A stretch of 64,000 bases of DNA from an uncultured virus (IMG/VR IMGVR_UViG_2061766007_000872). Lineage: Duplodnaviria; Heunggongvirae; Uroviricota; Caudoviricetes. A program made the translations under genes and the position numbers. Below, piece after piece: positions 6,001-17,500 of this stretch (position 1 is the stretch's first letter; each line of letters opens with the position of its first letter). The notes under the pieces were generated by a model. That model ran no database searches, had not been told where the DNA came from, and saw only the letters and a list, made by a program, of their open reading frames with translations. The stretch lies in the IMG/VR virus record IMGVR_UViG_2061766007_000872. One strand, written 5' to 3'.

Positions 6001-7100
6001 GAATAAAAAACAAGAGTCTATAGAAGAAGATATTGAGAAACATGATACATTAAATCAAAAACTCTTTGATGGTGAAGAATTAAAACCTGAAATTAAAGAG
6101 AAGATTGAACAAATTGCTTATCAGTTTGTCAATGAATTAAATGAAGATGGCATTAGATTCACACTTAAAGATATTGTCTTATTAGGCAGTAATGTTTCTT
6201 ATAACTATACAAAAGATAGTGACTTAGACATCCACTTAATTGCAGATTCAAGTGGCTTAGAATGTCCAGACAACTTATATCCACTTCTTTATAGTGCATA
6301 TAGAAGTATGTTCAACAAGAACTATGACATCAAGATTAAAGGTATTCCAGCAGAAATCTATGTTGAAATGGATGAACCAGTTGCAAAGAGTAACGGCATC
6401 TATTCTTTAAATAATGGTTGGTTAAAGAAACCTGAACAAAGAGATATTCCAGACTTAGATGAAGAAGCATTTGATAAACTCTTCAATGAGTGGGAAGATA
6501 AATACTTTGAATTAATGGAAAAAGATGCTACAAGTGAAGATATAGAAAACTTCATTGAAGACTTATATGATTTAAGAAAAGAATCAATAGCAACAGAAGG
6601 TGAATATGGCCTTGGTAATCTAGTCTTCAAAGAATTTAGAAATATTGGTTACTTAGATGGCTTAAAAGAATTAAGAAAAGAGAAGAAAGGTAAAGAACTT
6701 TCTCTTGAACAATTAGAAGAAGATGCTAAGGAATCAAAGTTCTATGATACATTAGATACTGGTGCTACATTTGATTTAAATACTCTTNNNNNNNNNNNNN
6801 GTATATATTGTTCCTGTTGACTCTAAGAATTGGGATGATGAAAAACCTACATTAGAAGAATTTAATAAAGAGTTTTATAAATTTGTAAATGCTTATAGAG
6901 GAAAGAATGATAGAAAGTATGTCATAGGCACATATCATAATGAAGATACTGGTAGATATTCTATTGATATCAGTATTATTTTACCTGATAATGATGATAC
7001 AGCATTTGAAATTATAGATGACACTCAAGAAGAATTAGGACATCTTGATTCAGAAGGTAACTATGAAGATGTTAAGAATCCTAAATACAAAGCAAAGTAA
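3062..7100 (+). CDS. Large acidic multi-module protein with a pol-beta-family nucleotidyltransferase module
   Basis: ORF 3062..6820 resumes after the N-gap (6788-6800) as VYIVPVDSKNW...KYKAK* ending at 7100. Contains LLGSNVSYNYTKDSDLDIH (GS...DxD) and many LxE linkers. Confidence 0.7.
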
Positions 7101-7104
7101 TTCT

Positions 7105-7121
7105 TGCTAAATTAAATGATA
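7105..7121 (+). promoter_or_regulatory. TGCTAAATT motif, putative late promoter
   Basis: TGCTAAATTAAATGATA, intergenic. Confidence 0.7.
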
Positions 7122-7156
7122 AAGTATATAATTTTGTATAAACGGAGAAATTTAAT

Positions 7157-7983
7157 ATGAATGATATTAAAGAACTTGCAAAATGGCTAAAAGATGAAGT
7201 TGAATTCCTCAAAGCAAATCAAGATTATGTTGGTGGCTGGTATGACTTGGGTAATGGTCTTGCCGCAACAGTTCTTTGGGAAGATGGTTGGGGAGATGAA
7301 GCAAGNNNNNNNNNNNNNNNNNNNNNNNNNATTGGGCATTATGTGCAGGTGTTATGGTAATTAATAAAGATGACACACCAGATGGTTGGTTTATGCCTTG
7401 GGATAGTAAAACTGGTGATTTACTTTGTGAAACTACTGGCATTACTCCTAATGAAGACTATGAAAAACTTGCTAGTTGGCTATTAGATGATTTCAATAGA
7501 CTTAAAGGTGCTGATATCAAATCAAACGGTGAAACAATTTTTGGTGACCCAGAAAGAGAACCAGAAGCACTGGTAGAAACATCTGTTGAAGTTGAGGAAG
7601 AATCTTGTGAGTCTTGTAATAAAGAAGACAAGAAACCTATAAAAGAAGAAAATGAAATCCATAATTCTCCATATAAAGATATTATTGCAGAATATTTTGA
7701 CTATAGCGGTGATATGGAATTCTTAGATATCGTTGCATCTTGTCTAGAAAGAGTTGAAGACTTTGAAGACGATGAAGATATCTATAGCGCAATAGATGAT
7801 GAATTAATTTATACATATGACCAGTGGAAAGTTCTAGAACACTATTGTACTCCACAAGAAGCAAATTGGGATAGTGCATATAGTGATTTCATGAGTGATA
7901 TTTTTGCTATTTGTTCTAGAATTGCTGGTATGAATAATAAAGAAGATGACTTAGAAGAACCTGAAGAAGGAGAAGAAGATTAA
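7157..7983 (+). CDS. Acidic hypothetical protein (one gene split by an N-gap)
   Basis: GGAG RBS before ATG 7157; ORFs 7157..7360 and 7354..7983 flank the gap at 7306-7330. Confidence 0.6.
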
Positions 7984-9485
7984 TGGATAAGAAAATTAAT
8001 GAAGAAGTCCAAGAAGAGGCTTATAAGATTGCTGACCATATTTTAGATGCAATTAAAGATAGAGACACAATCACTAAAGATGAGTTTGAAGAACAAATTG
8101 CATTAGCATGTAGAGAACTCTATGGAATTGATAATGTTTGGGAAACAATGGACCATGAAAAAGGTTTAGCGACAATTAATGATAAGCAATTTGATATGAG
8201 TGACTTAGATGCAGATATTAGAGGAATTCTTAGTTATAAAGGATGGGCTACTGATTTTAAAGATGGTGACTTAACAACTAAAGAAATTGAAAATGAATCT
8301 TTGAAAGAAGATGCAAATGAGCCTAAATTAGAAACATTTGAAGAAAAGATTGATTTCTTAGTTAAGGATGAAGACGAAGCAATTGCTGGCTATGACAAGA
8401 TTATTGCCATGTTAGGTGATGACAGTGCCAATGCCATTGAACAATTAACACATATTAAAGAAGAAGAAATTGCACATAAAGACTTCTTAGAAGTTCTTAA
8501 GAAAGACCCAAGTGCTATCTATAATCATGAAGATGAAGAAGAACATGATGAATCTTTAAAAGAAACTTTAGAATTTGATGCAATGGAAGACCTCAAAAGT
8601 GAAGTCTATCATGCTCTTTCAGAAATCTATGCTAAGTATGAACTAAAAGGTGCTACACTCAACGAGTTTGACTCCGCAGTTGATTTTGCAACTATTCATA
8701 TGAGAGATGAATTTGGTGAATCTTTAAAAGAAGATACTGAAGTTGAAGCAGAAGTTAAAGTTGAAGAGCCAAAAGAAGAAGAACCAGTTGAAGAACATCC
8801 AATTGAAACAACAGTAGAAGAAGTTAAAGAAATTGCTTCTGAAGTTGCAAATAAAGTTGTAGAACCAGTTTCTACTGAAGAAGAAGCAGATGAACAACAA
8901 GAAGCAATTGAAGAAATAGTTGATGAAGTTGTTGATGATAAATTCGGTGAAGATGATGACTTTGATGATGAAGATGAAAAGATTGTCAGAGACAATGATG
9001 AAGTCATTGATTTAGATGATATTGATGATGACTTCGGTTTTGATGAAGAATTAAAAGAAGATACAGTCAAGAAAGACAACAAATGGGTAAATAAAGGTAA
9101 AGAAGGTACTCACGGTGAATTCAAGACTAAGAAAGAAGCAGATGCTCAAAGAAGAGCCATGTTCGCTAATGGTTATCATGAAGAAGTTGAAGAAGACTTT
9201 GATGATGACTTTGGTGGTGGTAGTGATAAGTTTGTTCCAGGTGAAGCAGAACACTTTGGTGTTACAGTGAATTGGGATGACATGGATGATGTTGAAGAAG
9301 AAGATACTAAGATGTTTAAGAAAGTCATTAAGAGTACAGATGATGAAATCTTAGACAAACATTTTGGTAAAGATACACCTGAAAGAAAATTAGTTGGTGC
9401 TATTAAAAAAGACATTGATGAAGAAACACATGAAACAGGTCATATCAAAGCAAAGAAACCAATTGAATTAAGAGCAAGAAGATAA
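7983..9485 (+). CDS. Acidic multi-module protein with a ferritin-like (ExxH) half-domain; putative prohead core/internal protein
   Basis: ESLKE three times (8295, 8550, 8718); DEDEAIAGY...EEEIAH module. Confidence 0.65.
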   Translation: MDKKINEEVQEEAYKIADHILDAIKDRDTITKDEFEEQIALACRELYGIDNVWETMDHEKGLATINDKQFDMSDLDADIRGILSYKGWATDFKDGDLTTKEIENESLKEDANEPKLETFEEKIDFLVKDEDEAIAGYDKIIAMLGDDSANAIEQLTHIKEEEIAHKDFLEVLKKDPSAIYNHEDEEEHDESLKETLEFDAMEDLKSEVYHALSEIYAKYELKGATLNEFDSAVDFATIHMRDEFGESLKEDTEVEAEVKVEEPKEEEPVEEHPIETTVEEVKEIASEVANKVVEPVSTEEEADEQQEAIEEIVDEVVDDKFGEDDDFDDEDEKIVRDNDEVIDLDDIDDDFGFDEELKEDTVKKDNKWVNKGKEGTHGEFKTKKEADAQRRAMFANGYHEEVEEDFDDDFGGGSDKFVPGEAEHFGVTVNWDDMDDVEEEDTKMFKKVIKSTDDEILDKHFGKDTPERKLVGAIKKDIDEETHETGHIKAKKPIELRARR

Positions 9486-9492
9486 ACAATAC

Positions 9493-9522
9493 TTGACAAT
9501 TAATATAAGAGAGATGTATAAT
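9493..9522 (+). promoter_or_regulatory. sigmaA-type promoter
   Basis: TTGACA-18 nt-TATAAT; overlaps a terminator-like hairpin. Confidence 0.45.
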
Positions 9523-9544
9523 ATCATATGCATCTTTTTTATTT
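9512..9544 (+). terminator. Intrinsic terminator
   Basis: AGATGTATA/TATGCATCT stem followed by a T-run, just after stop 9485. Confidence 0.55.
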
Positions 9545-9550
9545 ACAAAA

Positions 9551-9567
9551 TGCTAAATTAAACAAAA
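9551..9567 (+). promoter_or_regulatory. TGCTAAATT motif upstream of the RNA island
   Basis: TGCTAAATTAAACAAAA; 3' half diverges from the consensus. Confidence 0.55.
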
Positions 9568-9573
9568 TAACTA

Positions 9574-9602
9574 TTGCAATTTGAAAAATAAATTGTATAA
9601 TA
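9574..9602 (+). promoter_or_regulatory. sigmaA-like / TTGTATAATA promoter for the RNA island
   Basis: TTGCAA-16 nt-TATAAT. Confidence 0.55.
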
Positions 9603-9633
9603 GTATATAGATAATGCACAGAGTTGCTTTATC

Positions 9634-9696
9634 GGGCATGTGAGTAGTATTCCTCCTTTTCAAAATTAAATAATTCATTGACTAAATCACATGCTT
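9634..9696 (+). ncRNA. Hairpin presenting an anti-Shine-Dalgarno (UCCUCCUUU) loop
   Basis: GCATGTGA (9636-43) pairs with TCACATGC (9687-94); loop contains TCCTCCTTT (9651-59). Confidence 0.4.
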
Positions 9697-9766
9697 AGCC
9701 GAGAAAGTTTGGACATAAGTTCACTTTCCAGGGTTTGTAAGTTTTCCCTAAAAACTTACTTGACAT

Positions 9767-9841
9767 CGCAGGGTGGAACAGTGGTAGTTTGCTAGGCTCA
9801 TAACCTAGAGGTCGGTGGTTCAATCCCATCCCCTGCAACCA
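9767..9841 (+). tRNA. tRNA-Met(CAT), initiator (fMet) type
   Basis: Cloverleaf: acceptor CGCAGGG/CCCTGCA with C1:A72 mismatch, A11-U24 pair, anticodon arm CTAGG-CTCATAA-CCTAG, T arm GGTGG-TTCAATC-CCATC, encoded CCA. Confidence 0.95.
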
Positions 9842-9875
9842 ATTGAATATCCTTAGGCTTTATAGTCTAACGGTG

Positions 9876-10541
9876 ATAGATGGTAGGATTACCAGTCAAC
9901 CACAGTAACTGGTCGGGACCCTATATGGACGTTAACCGTAGGAGTGTTGACACTTCAGTGCACTAACAAGTGTTAGCACTGGTTATTTAAGTCTAGAAAT
10001 AGACACAAGACAAATGGAGTGGGACACCATTACCCACAGGGCTGAGCAACCTTATGTTCAATGCTTAGGACATTAACCTTTGCTTCAAATGGTAAGTAAA
10101 CCAGTGAGAGTAATTAACTCATTGAAGGATAAGAAGCATAAACAATATTGCTAGGGGTGTCAGTAATTAAGACATCCCTTGATTGGTAATTACATCTCAT
10201 GATGTGGTTATAAAAGTCTAAACATTGGGTAGAAATATTCGGTCGTTTAGGATTATGAGTCTTCATGATTCATAAGCACGGAGGCACACCCTCTATGATA
10301 TAAAGCACGGTGAACTGCCGTTGACGAATGTCAGATTATGAAGGAAGTGTTACCTTCTGATATGAGCAAATCTATCTCACTATGCTTAGGACAATAACCT
10401 TGAAGATGAAAGCACAGATATCAAATAAGTCTTCTAAACAATTTAATTCCTAGTCCCAGCCTTGTGCGTAAGTGGTCGGTGCTCCAGGTAAGTGGAGAAA
10501 AGTAGAATAGACTACGAACAAATCTTACCTACCTCATCTAT
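9876..10541 (+). ncRNA. Candidate large structured ncRNA (~670 nt; ROOL/GOLLD-like context)
   Basis: No long ORF and higher GC than flanks. Ends pair (ATAGATG/CATCTAT; GTAGGATT/AATCTTAC), GNRA-capped hairpins, an internal duplicated module, and it starts ~35 nt after the tRNA. Confidence 0.7.
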
Positions 10542-10682
10542 AGTTTCTAAATGTGTAAGACTAAATTATCGGCTATGTCTTTGAAGAAGCATGACCTTCT
10601 AATTAGCCGAGCATGCGATAGATTGAACACTAGGATAATATAGGACCTAGCATTTTTGTTAAAAAGAAAGGAAGAAGTAATT

Positions 10683-12014
10683 ATGAAAAAGAGTTTAAAG
10701 TTACTTTTTACAACATTAGCGTTGTTCACATTAGGATTAACTTCTTGCGGTACTAGAACTACTTCAAGTTCAACTGGTCCTGAATGGACAATTAAAGAAG
10801 ATGGTCATTTATATCATTTTGATGAAGATTTAGGTGATGTCACTGGTCCAAAAGGTGACAAAGGTGACCAAGGTGAAAAGGGCGATACTGGTGAAACAGG
10901 TGCTCAAGGCCCTAAAGGTGATACTGGTGAAACAGGCCCACAAGGTCCAGCCGGTCAAGATGGTGCAAATGGTCAAGACGGAGCAAACGGACAAGATGGT
11001 GCTCCAGGTGCCGATGGCAAAGATGGTGCTGATGGCAAAGATGGTGTTGGTATCAAAGACATTAGTAGAACAGACAATGATGGTGTCATGGATACCTACA
11101 CAATTACAATGACAGACGATTCAACATTTACATTTAAAGTTCCAAATGCTCCTACAAGTATGGCAGTTGTCAATAATAGAGTTGATGGTGACGGTGTTGA
11201 TTTACCTTATTATGTTGGAACAAGTGCTCCATTAGACATCACAGTTACTGCTACATTTGTTGATGGTAGTGAAATGGAAGTTAAGTCATTTGAAGTTACT
11301 GGTTTTGATACAACAACCGCTGGTAAGAAAGATGTTGTTGTTAAACTCGGTGCATTAAGTGATGCATTCAGTGTTGATGTTGTGAGTATTAGTGATGAAG
11401 TTGCTGATGCATTATCTGCAGAAGGTGTTAATGATACACTTCCAGGTTTAAGTTCTGGTGCAGTTGATTATCAATATGTCCCATCAGTGAATGTCTTATT
11501 AATTGCTTTAGATGAAGATGCAGACACAGATGCTATGATTACTCAATATGGTGCTGACTTAGTTGCCGCAGGATTCACAGCAGCAGGTGCTGACAGTTAT
11601 GGTGATATGCATTACTTATCTCCAAATAATGAATTTGATGTTTGTGCTTGGAATTACTATGGCTTAATTAGAGTTGACATCAAAGTTTATGCTCCATTCC
11701 CATTAGACCAAGTTAACACATTCTTAACAACTTATGGTTATTCATTCACATTTGATGCATCAATTGGTGAAGCATTCGGTAGAAACACTTGGATTGCTGA
11801 ATCAGATGAAAGTAGTGGTTATCATTATTTAGCCATTTATCTTGAAGGTGGTGACTATGTTGATGCTTGGAAAGCCATTCTCAATGATACATTAGTTGCT
11901 AATGACTTTGAATGGGATGATACATACGGATTTGTCAATTACACAACATATAAACAAATTAGTGTTTACTATAATGCTAATTATGATGTCTCAATCATTC
12001 AAATTTGGGAATAA
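10683..12014 (+). CDS. Lipoprotein with collagen-like repeats and an Ig-like domain
   Basis: MKKSLKLLFTTLALFTLGLTS-C lipobox; G-X-Y repeats; VTATFVDGSEMEV..FDTTTAGKKDVVVK Ig-like segment; RBS AAAGGAAG. Confidence 0.8.
   Translation: MKKSLKLLFTTLALFTLGLTSCGTRTTSSSTGPEWTIKEDGHLYHFDEDLGDVTGPKGDKGDQGEKGDTGETGAQGPKGDTGETGPQGPAGQDGANGQDGANGQDGAPGADGKDGADGKDGVGIKDISRTDNDGVMDTYTITMTDDSTFTFKVPNAPTSMAVVNNRVDGDGVDLPYYVGTSAPLDITVTATFVDGSEMEVKSFEVTGFDTTTAGKKDVVVKLGALSDAFSVDVVSISDEVADALSAEGVNDTLPGLSSGAVDYQYVPSVNVLLIALDEDADTDAMITQYGADLVAAGFTAAGADSYGDMHYLSPNNEFDVCAWNYYGLIRVDIKVYAPFPLDQVNTFLTTYGYSFTFDASIGEAFGRNTWIAESDESSGYHYLAIYLEGGDYVDAWKAILNDTLVANDFEWDDTYGFVNYTTYKQISVYYNANYDVSIIQIWE
10845..11051 (+). repeat. 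Collagen triple-helix G-X-Y repeat
   Basis: GPKGDKGDQGEKGDTGETGAQGPK...GADGKDGADGKDG. Confidence 0.9.
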
Positions 12015-12017
12015 AAG

Positions 12018-12027
12018 TTGTATAATA
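12018..12027 (+). promoter_or_regulatory. TTGTATAATA promoter-like motif at the start of the large non-coding region
   Basis: The same motif precedes several replication genes. Confidence 0.5.
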
Positions 12028-12029
12028 TA

Positions 12030-13662
12030 TTAGCCAAAGCATGTAAATGTTAAAAGACCATGGGTTTATGCTTAGACGGTAAACCTCAATTCTGGTGGGC
12101 TATGTGAAATTGAAGCATATCGTTAAAGAAGTAGGACAAATAAACAAAACCTCTTAATGAAAAATAAAATGCTAAATTATATACAAAGAGGATACTGCCC
12201 AACCTCTTTAAAAACATGAGAAACGGTTTTATGAGGAGCCGTGCAACGAAAGTCTTCCATGTAAAGTGAATGCTTTACAACAAATCCAATTTTATTGGTC
12301 ATAAGTTAAATCTTATGCTTCCCACTACTTCACAGAACTATTAGGCATAAAATCCTAGCAAAGAATTGATAATGTAGATGGGATATTGTCTAGGGATATG
12401 TATTAAGCATGTTCCTTGATGTAAACAACACAGTAATGTGTGAAATTATCCTAATGTCATGAACATTAGGCATCAAGAGAAACTTCGGTTTCTCAAGTAT
12501 GATAGTTACATCTCTTGAAATATTGTCTAAGATGTACCTGCGAGGCAACTAAGATGATAACAAAGAAGATGTGATTATAAATCTAATAACTATGTAAACC
12601 TCACCGACTGGAGTAACATTGTATCCGTAGGGATAGTGCCAGAACAAGTATTAGTTATTAGACTGATGAGAGTTGAATAGGCCAAGATTAGCCTTGAGAA
12701 ATCATTGTCTATGACGGTAAGTCCCGCATAGGGAGCCATTTAATCTCACAAGAATAGTGAACCCAAGTTGGCAAATGAAGCCTCCATCGGTTCATGACCT
12801 ATGAAGTTTGTACATGATAGCAAATGCAAATGGAGGTTTTATGTGAGTTGGTGTGCTCATGCTATCTAGATGAAAAGAAACTTAATCTAAGTAGTTGAAG
12901 AAAAAGACATCTTTAAAACTCCTCACTAACTGCTGACCGACATGAGGCAACAGTATTCTAGATTATAGTGAGGATGTTTAAGTTCTCTAAGCCTAGTCAC
13001 CTAGCAAATGATTCATCTTGGAGATGATGATGCTATAAGACTCATTGTAGTAGTACTTAGTCTACAGGGCAATGTTCCACCACCTGGTACTTGAAATTCA
13101 ATTTAGAATCTTCAAGTGATACGCTTAGCATCTATGATATTGGCCATATCAAATGAAATAAGACTAAGACAAAGCCGGGGAATTCCAGGAACTTACTCCT
13201 GCAAGGAGGGGTTGAGCCCTCCCTTAATTGATATTGACTCTTAATTGAGTTGATATAGATTACCTCCTTTCTATGACAAAGAGTGTAAACTCTAGTCTAG
13301 GTTGACTACTTACCTGAAGCAATCTATCAAAGAAGTGGAAGATGGTAACAACAGAAACTCTTGTAAACAGAAACCATCTATGTTGGTGAAACACACTCAA
13401 ACTTATAGATTTATTCTATATCTATAAGTCATACGACGGTAATATGCTCGTCTGAAATGGCCGGTATATTGCTCTCGTGTTAGAACATCATGCTACCCTT
13501 GTGGTTGAAGAGAATGAAGATGGTTATCCATCAGGTAGTGAGAATCATAAATCCTAGTATAAGTGATAACTACATGAATGTTCATCATTCCGTGAAAAGA
13601 ATACAAACACGGTAGACACACTAATGAAAATAGCATATACTTGATTATGTGCTTAAACATGC
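12030..13662 (+). ncRNA. Candidate very large structured ncRNA or ncRNA cluster (~1.6 kb)
   Basis: No ORF of 60 aa or more on either strand. Dense hairpins, including a C(UUCG)G loop at 12477-12494, GCAA/GUAA tetraloops and nested long-range stems. Bounded by promoter motifs and a terminator. Confidence 0.7.
12170..12186 (+). promoter_or_regulatory. TGCTAAATT motif inside the non-coding region
   Basis: TGCTAAATTATATACAA. Confidence 0.5.
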
Positions 13663-13697
13663 AAAACACCTAGAGACTTATCTAGGTGTTTTCTTTT
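13663..13697 (+). terminator. Intrinsic terminator
   Basis: AAAACACCTAGA-GACTTA-TCTAGGTGTTTT followed by CTTTT. Confidence 0.85.
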
Positions 13698-13733
13698 GCA
13701 AAAATGTTAAAAATTATACAATTTTTATATAAT

Positions 13734-13750
13734 TGCTAAATTTAATGATA
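13734..13750 (+). promoter_or_regulatory. TGCTAAATT motif, putative late promoter
   Basis: TGCTAAATTTAATGATA. Confidence 0.75.
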
Positions 13751-13778
13751 AAGTTTATTTTTACATGGAGAGTAATAG

Positions 13779-14525
13779 ATGACACTTCAAGAATATGTAG
13801 ATAATATCAAACTTGAGTTAACTGGTGGTGTTCTTGAGTTAGAAGTTGATGATGATACAATTGGCAAATATGTCATGCAAGCACTTAGAGAAATTCAAAG
13901 ATATATTGATGAAACTAAGTTAGTGCAAGTTCCATTTTCATCTTGCATTGATTTAGGAGAATATGTTGATGAACAAGGTAAGAAGCATGAATTTAAGCAT
14001 AGTTCAATAACAAATGTTTATAGATGTGAAGCAGTTGGTGACCAGGGCAAAGGTAATGGCGGAATTAGTAGTGTTGACCCAGCCTATGCTCAATTTTGGT
14101 TAGCATCAAGTAATGGTAGTTCAATGTATAATTTAAATAGTTGGTTAATGAACTATATGACATATAACACATTACTTCAATTGAGAAATACTACTTCTAC
14201 AGACTTAGCATTTAGAGAAGATAAACATCAAAATAAACTCTATATCAATGTCTCTGCTGGTAGACCAGATTATATTGCAATTGAGTATGTACCAATCTTT
14301 GAAGATGTTGATGACATTAAGAGTGATTATTGGAAAGAAATTCTATATAGACTTGCATTAGCAATTACTAAAATGGGTTTAGGTAGAATTAGAACATGGG
14401 CAAAACAAAATAATGCTTTGTATACAGTTGATGGAGATACAATACTTGAAGAAGGTAGAAATGAAAGAACAGAAATTGAACAAAGATTAATACAAAATAG
14501 TAATTTATTCTATCCAGTTGATTAA
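13779..14525 (+). CDS. Head completion/neck protein (T4 gp13-like)
   Basis: N-terminal IKLELTGGVLELEVDDDTI and C-terminal LALAITKMGLGRIR...VDGDTILEEG pattern; position before tail genes. Confidence 0.7.
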   Translation: MTLQEYVDNIKLELTGGVLELEVDDDTIGKYVMQALREIQRYIDETKLVQVPFSSCIDLGEYVDEQGKKHEFKHSSITNVYRCEAVGDQGKGNGGISSVDPAYAQFWLASSNGSSMYNLNSWLMNYMTYNTLLQLRNTTSTDLAFREDKHQNKLYINVSAGRPDYIAIEYVPIFEDVDDIKSDYWKEILYRLALAITKMGLGRIRTWAKQNNALYTVDGDTILEEGRNERTEIEQRLIQNSNLFYPVD

Positions 14526-14535
14526 GGAGATACAA

Positions 14536-17500
14536 ATGGGAAAATTAGAAACATTAAGAGCAGAATTAGAAAAAGCAAGAGAAAAACTTCATGCTAGAGG
14601 ATTTGAATATGATGGTAAAGCAAATGGCTATAAGGAATTAATGGCCGCAAAACCATTTGAAATTGCATATCAAGATGTTATTGAAAAGATTTGGCCAGAT
14701 AATGCTTGGTGGGAAGTCACACATTATTGGGATATTTTTGATGCAATGATGGGTGGTTTCAGTGATGAAGAAGTCATTGATGAAATTTGTAAGCATGTCG
14801 GTAAAGATTATCTTGATGAAGAAGTTGAATCAAATGTTGGAGGCGCATATGTTGAAAAAGGTCACAACATGAGAGAATACATTGAAAAGTTTGGTGATGC
14901 TTATGATAATGGCGAACTTTGGGATTTCTCAAAAGAAGATTTTGAAAATGGTGCAATAGATGTTAATCCATACATTATCTATTGGTATATGCAAGATTTA
15001 GATGGTGAGTGGAGATATTTTGAAACTAATCTTGAACCTAAGAAAGAATGTGTTAAAGAAGAAAAAAAGTTAGATGAAGGTACTTCTAATTTTGGTGCAG
15101 GTCCAGAGCATTTTCCATTATTAGTTTTCTATACTTATGATGAATATTTATATAATTTGACACATGCTCAAGATTATCCTCAAGAAGAACAATTTGAGGA
15201 TGAAGATGGCAAAATAGATTGGGATGCATTTGAAAATGCTAAAGAAGAATTTGAATTAAAATATGATGAATCAAATAAAATTTGTGTTTTAGATGAAGAT
15301 ACACAAGAAAGATTAGAGAATAAACTCTATGACTTTAATGAAGAATCTAAGAGAATAGCATGGGATGCAGATGTTGTTGATGGTGAACAACAATATGGCA
15401 ATAATCTTAGTCTTGAAGATGTTAAAGTAAATATTGAACCTGGTTATTATAGTGCAGCATATATTGATGTTGAGCATGAAGACTATCTTGAAGATTTAGA
15501 TGAAGATTTCAAAGCAAAACAATTTGAAAGATTTACTAAGTTATTCCAAGAATTAAAATCTGAATTTGGTTTAACTGAATTATCTGCTGGTCCTATGGCT
15601 TCTAATGGTGAAAGAGGTTACTCTATTGTCAATAATGAATCTTTAGACGAATCAAATAAAAAATATGCTTTAGTTGTTAATGGTGAGTGGTACTCAACTT
15701 ATGATTCATATGAAAAAGCACAAAAGGCACAAGAAAGATTCTTAGATGCAATTGATAATGATGAAGATGCTCAAAAAGAATATGGTGCTTTTGCAAATGT
15801 TGAAATTAAAGAAGTTAATGAGTCTTTAAATGAATCTATGGAAAGTGAAGTCACTAAATGGTGGAAAGATGTTGAAGATGCCAATAAAGAAATGAAATGG
15901 GATTTCAAGATTGACAATGGCGACTATAGCGATGTAGAAGCAATGCACGCAGCAATGTTTGACATGCTAGATGACCTTAAAGAAAAAGGTGCTAGTGACT
16001 TATTCAATAGAGGTAAAAAGATTTATAATAAATATGCTATTAGTAAATATAATGAAGAATTAAAAGAATCTTGCAGTGATAAAGAACTAGTTGATAAATT
16101 AGTTGCATTTGGTACTTGTGCTGATGAAAAAGAAGCAAAAGAAAGAGTTGCTAAAATGTCTAAAGAAGATAAAGAAAAAATGTGTAAATCTCTTTCCGCT
16201 CAAGCAAAAGACCATTTATTAAATGATTCTTTAAATGAGTCTGATGAGGTTGCAAGAGTAGAATATTGTGTTATGGATAAAGATAATAACAATATTGAAT
16301 GTTTTGATAATACTGATGATGCCATTGCTTTTGCTAAAGAGCATGAAGGTATTAGAGTTCTTGAAGTTCAATATGGACCAAAAGATGAAAACGGTGATGA
16401 AGAAGAATTAGGTTGTGAAGAAGTTTGGTCTATTAGAGAATCTTTAAAAGAAGANNNNNNNNNNNNNNNNNNNNNNNNNNNNNNNNNNNNNNNNNACAGG
16501 TGACCCAGCCAAAGATGCTGCCTTCTTTAATCATGCTATGGGCAGTGATAAAGGTGATGTCAGTGTTGAAAAATCTTCAGTTAGTTTAGGTGAAGGTTAT
16601 GTTGGACAAGATGTTGAAGACTTCTTAGATGTCATTAGTGACAATGAAGCAATTGAAACATTAGTTATCTCTAACATTGATGCAGATGATTATACAGAAG
16701 CATTCAAAGGTAAATATGAAGATTTAGATAGTAACTTACTACATTGTGAATATGCAGACTTTGATGTTGGTGGTGATATTTTAGTTGTCAATGTTAAAAC
16801 TGAATCAGATGATTGGAATGATTTATACTATGATGACTTGGAATCACTCTTAGAAGACTACAACGGCGATGAAATTAGAATTATAGATGTAGATACTGGT
16901 GAAACACTTTTTGAAGGTGATAAAGAAGATATTGATGATGAAGTTAAGGGATTAACTTTCTGGTCAATTGATACACCTAAGTATCTATGTGTTAATGCTC
17001 ATTGTGGTGAGATTGAAGACCTTGAACCAGATTTCGGTGAAGATGATGAATTAAAGATTGAATACTGGTATGATGAAGAATCTAGAGACCAAGGTTTAGG
17101 TGATATGTACTTTGGTGAAATTGAAGATGAAGAAGACGGCAAAAGAATTGTCAGAAAGATGATTGATAGAGATGGCTTTGCTTCAGCAGAACTTCAAAGA
17201 GGTGATACAGTTCTCTTTGGCTATGATGGTGAATCAACATGGGGAGAACTTGCAGAATCTTTAGATGAAGCATCTCATAGAGGTATGGATTATTATGAAT
17301 ATAAAGGTTGTCATGTTAGAGAAACACCTTCTTGCTTTGTTGCAACTGATGAACATGGCACAACTTTAGGTGACTCTAAAACAAAAGCCGGTGCAGAAGG
17401 AATCATTGATGACCATGTTGCTAAGAAAGATGAAAAGTTATCTAAGAAGCAAATAGATAAGAATGTCAAGAGAAATCTTGCTTATCTTAAGTGGCAAGGT

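Follow-up and report, generated by a model that had tools for sequence, protein, structure and literature searches.

A mosaic ORF-free island with a conserved 3' RNA domain behind an initiator-like tRNA-Met in a bovine gut or rumen phage contig

The phage contig and its ORF-free islands

The window, by which we mean the whole 64,000-nt stretch of DNA analysed here, comes from an uncultured member of the Caudoviricetes (IMG/VR record IMGVR_UViG_2061766007_000872). It has a GC content of 31.6%, and its long ORFs (at least 120 aa) lie nearly all on the + strand. PHROG and Pfam searches matched a tail sheath, a head-tail adaptor and tail-fibre-like collagen repeats, as well as a DNA polymerase, a DnaB-type helicase, an SNF2 helicase and NrdD, and because of these protein matches we regard the window as a large myovirus-like phage contig. 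A sequencing-run index gave bovine gut or rumen samples as its source, and blastn of the window against the phage GenBank collection found no match. Only two stretches of 500 nt or more in the window are free of ORFs, 9486-10546 and 12015-13778 (region B). Between them sits a tail-fibre-like gene with collagen repeats and a Big_3 domain (10684-12014, + strand; Pfam Collagen and Big_3, PHROG tail-fibre families), which probably starts at the ATG at 10684. The N-terminus of its product (10684-10755), read from the sequence, is MKKSLKLLFTTLALFTLGLTSCG, resembling the signal peptide and lipobox of a lipoprotein, a feature unusual in a tail fibre. A diversity-generating retroelement template was considered and rejected, there being no repeat of at least 37 nt that links 10656-12014 to the non-coding stretches.

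A promoter-like site, TTGCAA-16-TATAAT (9574-9601, + strand, 10/12 matches), lies within the first island and contains the motif TTGTATAAT. The window has 10 copies of this motif where 2.6 are expected, nine of them on the + strand (2954, 9593, 12018, 41864, 45731, 48689, 52199, 57223 and 60656) and one on the − strand (13713). Several copies lie directly 5' of gene starts, and TTGTATAAT also precedes the islands of the related loci L001, L089 and others described below. It is likely the −10 consensus of the phage promoters. The sequence AAAATGCTAAATTA recurs at 9547-9567, at 12166-12186 and near 13735, close to island promoters, and the similar GTGCTAAATTAAATG precedes the island promoter of L001; this motif is a candidate regulator site. 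The promoter-like sites listed for the first island (9493-9522, 9500-9527 and 9574-9601) are all on the + strand, as is the tRNA that follows. From a predicted transcription start, a putative leader (9608-9766, + strand, folding z = −3.3) would run to a tRNA-Met with anticodon CAT and an encoded CCA (9767-9841, + strand; ARAGORN, Rfam 59.4 bits). The first acceptor pair of this tRNA reads as a C1xA72 mismatch, which we take to be the hallmark of an initiator tRNA. The first-pass annotation, made from the sequence alone, had proposed a structured RNA of ~670 nt (9876-10541) directly after a tRNA, and the ARAGORN and Rfam calls confirm that the tRNA-Met is directly upstream.

The claim that the proposed RNA contains no ORF also holds. 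Stretch 9486-10546 has no ORF of about 60-70 aa or longer, and an artefact of the genetic code was rejected, since no long frame appears when TAG, TGA or TAA is given a sense meaning (longest frame 123 aa). The GC content is 0.388 in 9842-10655 and 0.395 in 9876-10541, compared to 0.316 for the window. Folding of 9842-10560 against 20 shuffles per strand favoured the + strand (z = −5.18, compared with −2.87 for the − strand). Folded separately, 9846-10211 (unit A1) gave z = −3.53, 10212-10655 (unit A2) stayed at shuffle level (z = −0.43), and the 5' body of A2 (10212-10477) gave z = −1.15; 20 coding pieces of 400 nt used as controls had a mean z of −0.99 (sd 0.89, minimum −2.43). Both GNRA hairpins that had been pointed out are there, GTCTA-GAAA-TAGAC at 9991-10004 and GGGTA-GAAA-TATTC at 10227-10240. 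A 40-nt motif, TGAGCAA-N13-ATGCTTAGGACAWTAACCTT (repeat family D8), is present twice on the + strand, at 10043-10080 and 10363-10401, and the local alignment of the two copies scores 37 vs 19.5 ± 2.2 for shuffles (maximum 27). The sequence ATGCTTAG has four copies within the two ORF-free islands (9691, 10061, 10382 and 12068) and seven in the whole window, where 2.8 are expected and 3/100 shuffles reach seven; it is similar to the start of the tRNA D-arm region in the compared sequences.

Mosaic modules in related islands and RNA libraries

Related loci were sought through the neighbouring proteins. The 500-aa protein encoded upstream led to one relative, L001. The 248-aa protein encoded downstream has 1436 homologues, the 25 closest at 67-98% identity, and its alignments gave 79 viral and 71 metagenome loci; a single-protein locus search with this neighbour returned nothing. 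ORF-free islands of at least 1 kb lie 5' of the 248-aa gene in the closest clade only (63-72% protein identity). Among the viral loci such an island occurs in L012 only, which is L001's contig, and in 13 others the gaps measure 560-987 nt and are mostly found in other parts of the locus. Five of the 71 metagenome loci have one (L082, L083, L084, L088 and L089), where the islands of L082 and L083 are identical and L088 is again L001's contig. Pattern scans added two more islands, L154/L167 and L155, that lie in different genomic surroundings; L155 is contig C106 of a Bacilli MAG, and C106 has no protein in common with the window at a tblastx threshold of 1e-10.

BLAST between the islands of L001, L082, L084, L089, L154 and C106 and that of the window recovered only modules of 30-180 nt, in changing order. 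The module at 10043-10153 (+ strand) matches L001 5343-5452 at 81% identity, and in L001 it sits downstream of the match to 10490-10541, that is, after the 3' domain described below. Segment 10556-10610 matches L082, and 10613-10649 matches five islands. Neither 9846-10042 nor 10154-10481 found a homologue in the DNA collections, so most of the stretch lacks a comparative test. A pattern scan of the viral contigs for 10090-10114 found L001's contig only, and a 24-mer from the A2 body had no match in such a scan. Several islands lie near tRNAs: the island of L001 ends with a tRNA-Met, that of L167 has four tRNAs ~1.6 kb upstream, and that of C106 follows a tRNA at a distance of ~1.2 kb, its contig also having a 22-tRNA array with a ROOL RNA inside. 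The tRNA ~1.2 kb before the module island of C106 is one that ARAGORN labels SeC (L164 8668-8762, − strand); it is 95 nt long, has the anticodon TCA and could act as a suppressor that reads UGA.

The sequence also turns up in RNA libraries. Words of 9000-14000 occur, at 10-19% of the total, in eleven RNA runs that belong to three studies, and one run per study (X3, X4 and X14), together with the DNA run X5, was aligned to 7000-15000 at 90% identity or more; these data are assembled contigs, which carry no strand, RNA ends or expression level and may include DNA carry-over. Run X4 has contigs over 9910-10157 (two differences) and 10201-10644, the latter preceded by 20 unrelated letters, with depths of 18.3 for A1 and 17.5 for A2. 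An X14 contig joins 64 letters ending at 9845, the tRNA end, to 10212-10611 and skips 9846-10211; it thus spans the tRNA 3' end and 10212-10611, although contigs cannot prove a single transcript or RNA ends. The X3 contig runs over 10265-10611, and each of the three RNA runs also has contigs in region B, within 12036-13670. The common stop of X3 and X14 at 10611 probably reflects a break in assembly, not the end of an RNA, because no DNA run continues and a conserved repeated module begins at 10612. The RNA runs have next to no contigs over the flanking genes (7000-8600, 8869-9669 and 13675-15000) and X5 has next to none over 9670-10737; neither was counted as evidence. A DNA joint from 8733 to 13887 was disregarded, one of its sides having only 20 letters. 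By hand comparison the variants of the RNA contigs fit the predicted hairpins, several falling in loops and one (10280 G>A) changing G-U to A-U, in a set that is too small and too incompletely listed to serve as evidence.

The island is thus mosaic at the level of strains, with a boundary at ~10201-10212. From the rearranged modules and the RNA-library contig that joins the tRNA end to 10212, we therefore read at least two units on the + strand. A1 (9846-10211) is rich in hairpins and varies between strains, as seen from its folding and from the X14 and X4 contigs. A2 opens with a 5' body (10212-10477) that is a string of hairpins covered by contigs of X4, X14 and X3.

A conserved 3' domain and the question of end-to-end closure

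The 3' end of A2 is a conserved domain of ~180 nt (10478-10655, + strand), described by covariance model R1 and aligned with L001, L084, L089, L154 and L155rc (the − strand of L155). It lies mostly beyond 10541, where the first-pass annotation had put the 3' boundary; we move that limit to near 10650. Five helices were defined. S1 pairs CTCCA with TGGAG (10482-86/10493-97) and is invariant among relatives bar one U-G. S2 pairs GTAAG with CTTAC (10488-92/10524-28), which reads CCAAG/CTTGG in five relatives and GTAGT/ACTAC in L082. An inner hairpin, GTAG/CTAC (10502-05/10512-15), is GTAA/TTAC in two relatives, and Px pairs ATCTATAGT with GCGATAGAT (10536-44/10615-23), with ATTCAT/ATGAGT in L082. 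The terminal hairpin pairs CTAGG with CCTAG (10630-34/10646-50) around the loop ATAATATAGGA; its closing pair is C-G, A-U or G-C, and the 11-nt loop is near-invariant (ATAATAWAGGA, with C at the W position in L082). All are on the + strand, which is the preferred RNA sense because the U-G pairs of S1 and Px would become A-C mismatches on the other strand. S1 and S2 would form an H-type pseudoknot, because S2 begins in the S1 loop, and the 3' domain is probably pseudoknotted; S1 shows no compensatory change, so the pseudoknot itself has no compensatory support.

Covariation was counted in three ways. In the MAFFT alignment, S1, S2 and the inner hairpin have 100% of cells pairing and 3/14 pairs changed on both sides, a result reached by 4/500 shuffles. 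With all five helices, 95.2% of cells pair and 5/28 pairs are double-changed (2/500 shuffles). In the R1-fitted alignment of seven sequences from six lineages, 94.8% of cells pair and 8/23 pairs are double-changed (0/500 shuffles; slid controls 27-40%), these pair counts being biased by L082, whose alignment came from the model. R1 found seven full-length copies in 30 sources (402 kb, of ~170 loci), namely the six training rows and a new divergent copy at L082 1622-1777 (41.4 bits, E = 1e-6). Loops and junctions of the domain are invariant across lineages that have no proteins in common. Folded alone, the domain shows no excess (z = −0.47).

The domain is rare, with occurrences in two IMG/VR contigs and one record of the species-genome collection. 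Over 106 genomes of the order of G003, the genome of contig C106, R1 gave a single match, in G003 itself, and two looser scans for the terminal hairpin found only the two known contigs and L168. The L168 match was dropped as chance, since it lies inside ORFs and only 28 nt match at the pattern site. A promoter motif of the TATAAT type precedes the domain by ~200-340 nt in L001 and L089 (both TTGTATAAT) and in L084 (ATGTATAAT).

The insert enclosed by Px ranges in length from 17 to ~140 nt; in the window it holds a variable hairpin at 10569-10610. The inserts of two relatives recall bacterial tRNA-like RNAs by a T-arm-like hairpin, GGTTCAAATCC (AATGG-TTCAAAT-CCATT) in L084 at about 1375-1391 and GGTTCGATTCC (CTTGG-TTCGATT-CCAAG) in L155rc, at about 1925-1945 on the − strand of L155, whereas the window insert has no T-loop. 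We rejected tRNA-like inserts, since neither ARAGORN nor Rfam called them and the inserts fold at z ~0.

The first-pass annotation had proposed that the ends of the ~670 nt RNA pair with each other. The segments are complementary as described, ATAGATG (9876-82) with CATCTAT (10535-41) exactly and GTAGGATT (9883-90) with AATCTTAC (10521-28) with one G-U, and the nested stem 9911-19/10453-61 has 5+2 pairs with two mismatches. As a closing structure the two end helices are at chance level: the best duplex of the terminal 100-nt windows has −20.2 kcal/mol vs −19.6 ± 2.5 for shuffles, 34/100 of which equal it. The closing helix of the minimum-energy fold differs once the 3' boundary goes from 10560 to 10660, and in each of the two terminal helices the 3' strand shares positions with a covarying local helix, Px (10536-44) or S2 (10524-28). 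Between A1 and A2, a search with 32-nt windows found an interrupted duplex, 10014-10045/10452-10483, whose −28.3 kcal/mol is marginal against shuffles (−23.45 ± 2.4; 1/40 equal). The proposal of a structured non-coding RNA stands. One closed 670-nt fold with ends at 9876 and 10541 is argued against by the chance-level helices, the rearranged modules, the X14 joint and the position of the one part with comparative support (10478-10655), which is mostly outside these ends.

Relation to known RNAs and candidate roles

All 4227 Rfam 15 families were scanned. At gathering score the tRNA was the only match in the whole window; at E up to 10, 9400-10800 gave three chance-level hits and nothing relevant, and neither region B nor the islands of relatives had a match. 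Group I and group II introns, self-cleaving ribozymes, tmRNA and RNase P RNA gave no Rfam match at the stretch. The ROOL model (RF03087, cut-off 99.1 bits) had no match in the window, L001, G001 or G002 and scored 196.6 bits on contig G003:C106, used as a positive control. GOLLD was covered only by the whole-Rfam scans, which gave no match to it. We found no paper describing this locus. The 3' domain looks previously undescribed, and it is for 10478-10655 that the earlier suggestion of a new RNA is upheld.

The first-pass annotation had likened the locus to ROOL and GOLLD; the phage and tRNA context of this comparison is sound and membership of either family is not, given the lack of an Rfam 15 match. 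ROOL is a phage-borne rumen RNA of several hundred nt, found near tRNAs and of no known function (PMC5737381). The locus has all four of these traits, rumen, phage, tRNA proximity and length, lying on a phage contig with tRNA-Met directly upstream. The two differ in that ROOL keeps a single conserved architecture of 574 positions, while the locus is a mosaic of which only ~180 nt are conserved. The genuine ROOL found here (196.6 bits) lies at L164 18507-19067 on the − strand (G003:C106:38507-39067), inside the 22-tRNA array. Its contig, C106, is 41.7 kb long, phage-like and binned with the Bacilli MAG, and carries the conserved 3' domain ~12 kb from the ROOL on the same strand.

In GOLLD the 5' part varies while the 3' part is conserved; the RNA occurs in phages and prophages near tRNA islands, with one studied member downstream of a Met-tRNA and tRNAs sometimes within the linker (bioRxiv 10.1101/2024.12.08.627333). 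The locus resembles GOLLD in its Met-tRNA context and has an analogous layout, whose 5' and 3' parts may belong to one RNA or to several; it differs in having a far smaller conserved core.

The architecture of the locus also resembles that of stable RNAs made from tRNA operons. The tRNA region of phage T4 yields the stable RNAs species 1 and 2 (RNA C and D), of ~120-140 nt and unknown function, which are transcribed and processed together with the tRNAs. The T4 RNAs are not known to be mosaic.

We consider it somewhat more probable than not that the island is a promoter-driven operon of an initiator-like tRNA and stable RNAs, in which a conserved 3' domain is combined with exchangeable 5' bodies. 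The TTGTATAAT-type phage promoter at 9574-9601 would drive a single + strand transcript of leader, initiator-like tRNA-Met and ~810 nt of structured RNA (9842-10655). Host tRNA-processing nucleases would excise the tRNA and thereby set the 5' end of the downstream RNA, which would consist of at least two separable units, A1 (9846-10211) and A2 (10212-10655). The functional core would lie in the terminal ~180-nt domain of A2, as a structure that either binds a conserved partner or protects the end of the RNA, while the 5' bodies would be swapped between phages through recombination. The most likely reading of the product, which we hold with a little better than even confidence, is a stable RNA acting in trans through a conserved partner-binding core, this being its putative function. 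A shared partner and rapid diversification, the pattern of conflict systems, are suggested by the swappable bodies on a conserved 3' core. Perhaps the RNA serves as a decoy or sponge in phage-host conflict, with which fast module turnover would fit.

An unlikely but arguable alternative is one large ornate RNA of a new GOLLD-like class behind the tRNA-Met, folding as a whole and perhaps multimeric, like the homo-oligomeric nanocages of ROOL and GOLLD. The whole stretch does fold with a stronger z score (−5.18) than its parts (−3.53 and −0.43), A1 and A2 have similar depth in X4, their duplex is marginally above chance, and a true ROOL shares a contig with the domain; the layout with a conserved 3'-terminal domain is GOLLD-like, and one GOLLD member lies downstream of a Met-tRNA. 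Against this reading, X14 has 10212-10611 without 9846-10211, L001 carries the 10043-10153 module downstream of the 3' domain and not upstream of it, the terminal helices are at chance level, no Rfam family matches, and the conserved core measures only ~110-180 nt. A bolder version is more doubtful still, in which a new large phage RNA on the GOLLD plan, with an exchangeable 5' body of 0.3-0.65 kb and a pseudoknotted 3' domain, would be made together with the initiator tRNA and serve as an RNA-only assembly or tether for tRNA or ribosomes, region B (~1.65 kb) being a second, still larger member.

That the island is hyperplastic DNA without an RNA function, left by recombination scars or decay between promoter repeats and transcribed incidentally, we judge improbable. 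Module order is indeed shuffled between relatives, promoter motifs stand at island borders and A2 has no excess folding energy, but the compensatory changes in the helices and the loops and junctions kept invariant across lineages without common proteins speak against it, as do the enriched GC and the presence of the stretch in RNA libraries of three studies. Least probable of all is a cis-acting leader controlling translation or mRNA stability of the collagen-like tail-fibre gene, for although the domain ends at 10650-55, ~30 nt before the RBS and the ATG at 10684, with no intrinsic terminator found between, in L001, L089, L154 and L082 it is followed by further non-coding sequence and not by a gene, and the interval of L001 equivalent to the collagen-repeat gene has no ORF of at least 60 aa.

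The tRNA-linked phage RNAs of the ROOL and GOLLD types are abundant and structurally remarkable and are still without a function. What the locus contributes is a domain outside Rfam, common to rumen phages that have no proteins in common. The islands around it include tRNAs, and one contig with the domain has a ROOL as well. The locus can be followed up with existing data, because the sequence is in RNA libraries of three independent rumen or bovine-gut studies.

The second island, region B (12015-13778, + strand), is also preceded by a TTGTATAAT promoter-like site (11998-12026), from which it extends for ~1.65 kb to a hairpin and T-run near 13668-13700. It has modules in common with L001, L082 and L084. 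Region B folds strongly in each of its thirds (z = −5.15, −3.69 and −5.18), and it may be the more striking candidate for a large RNA.
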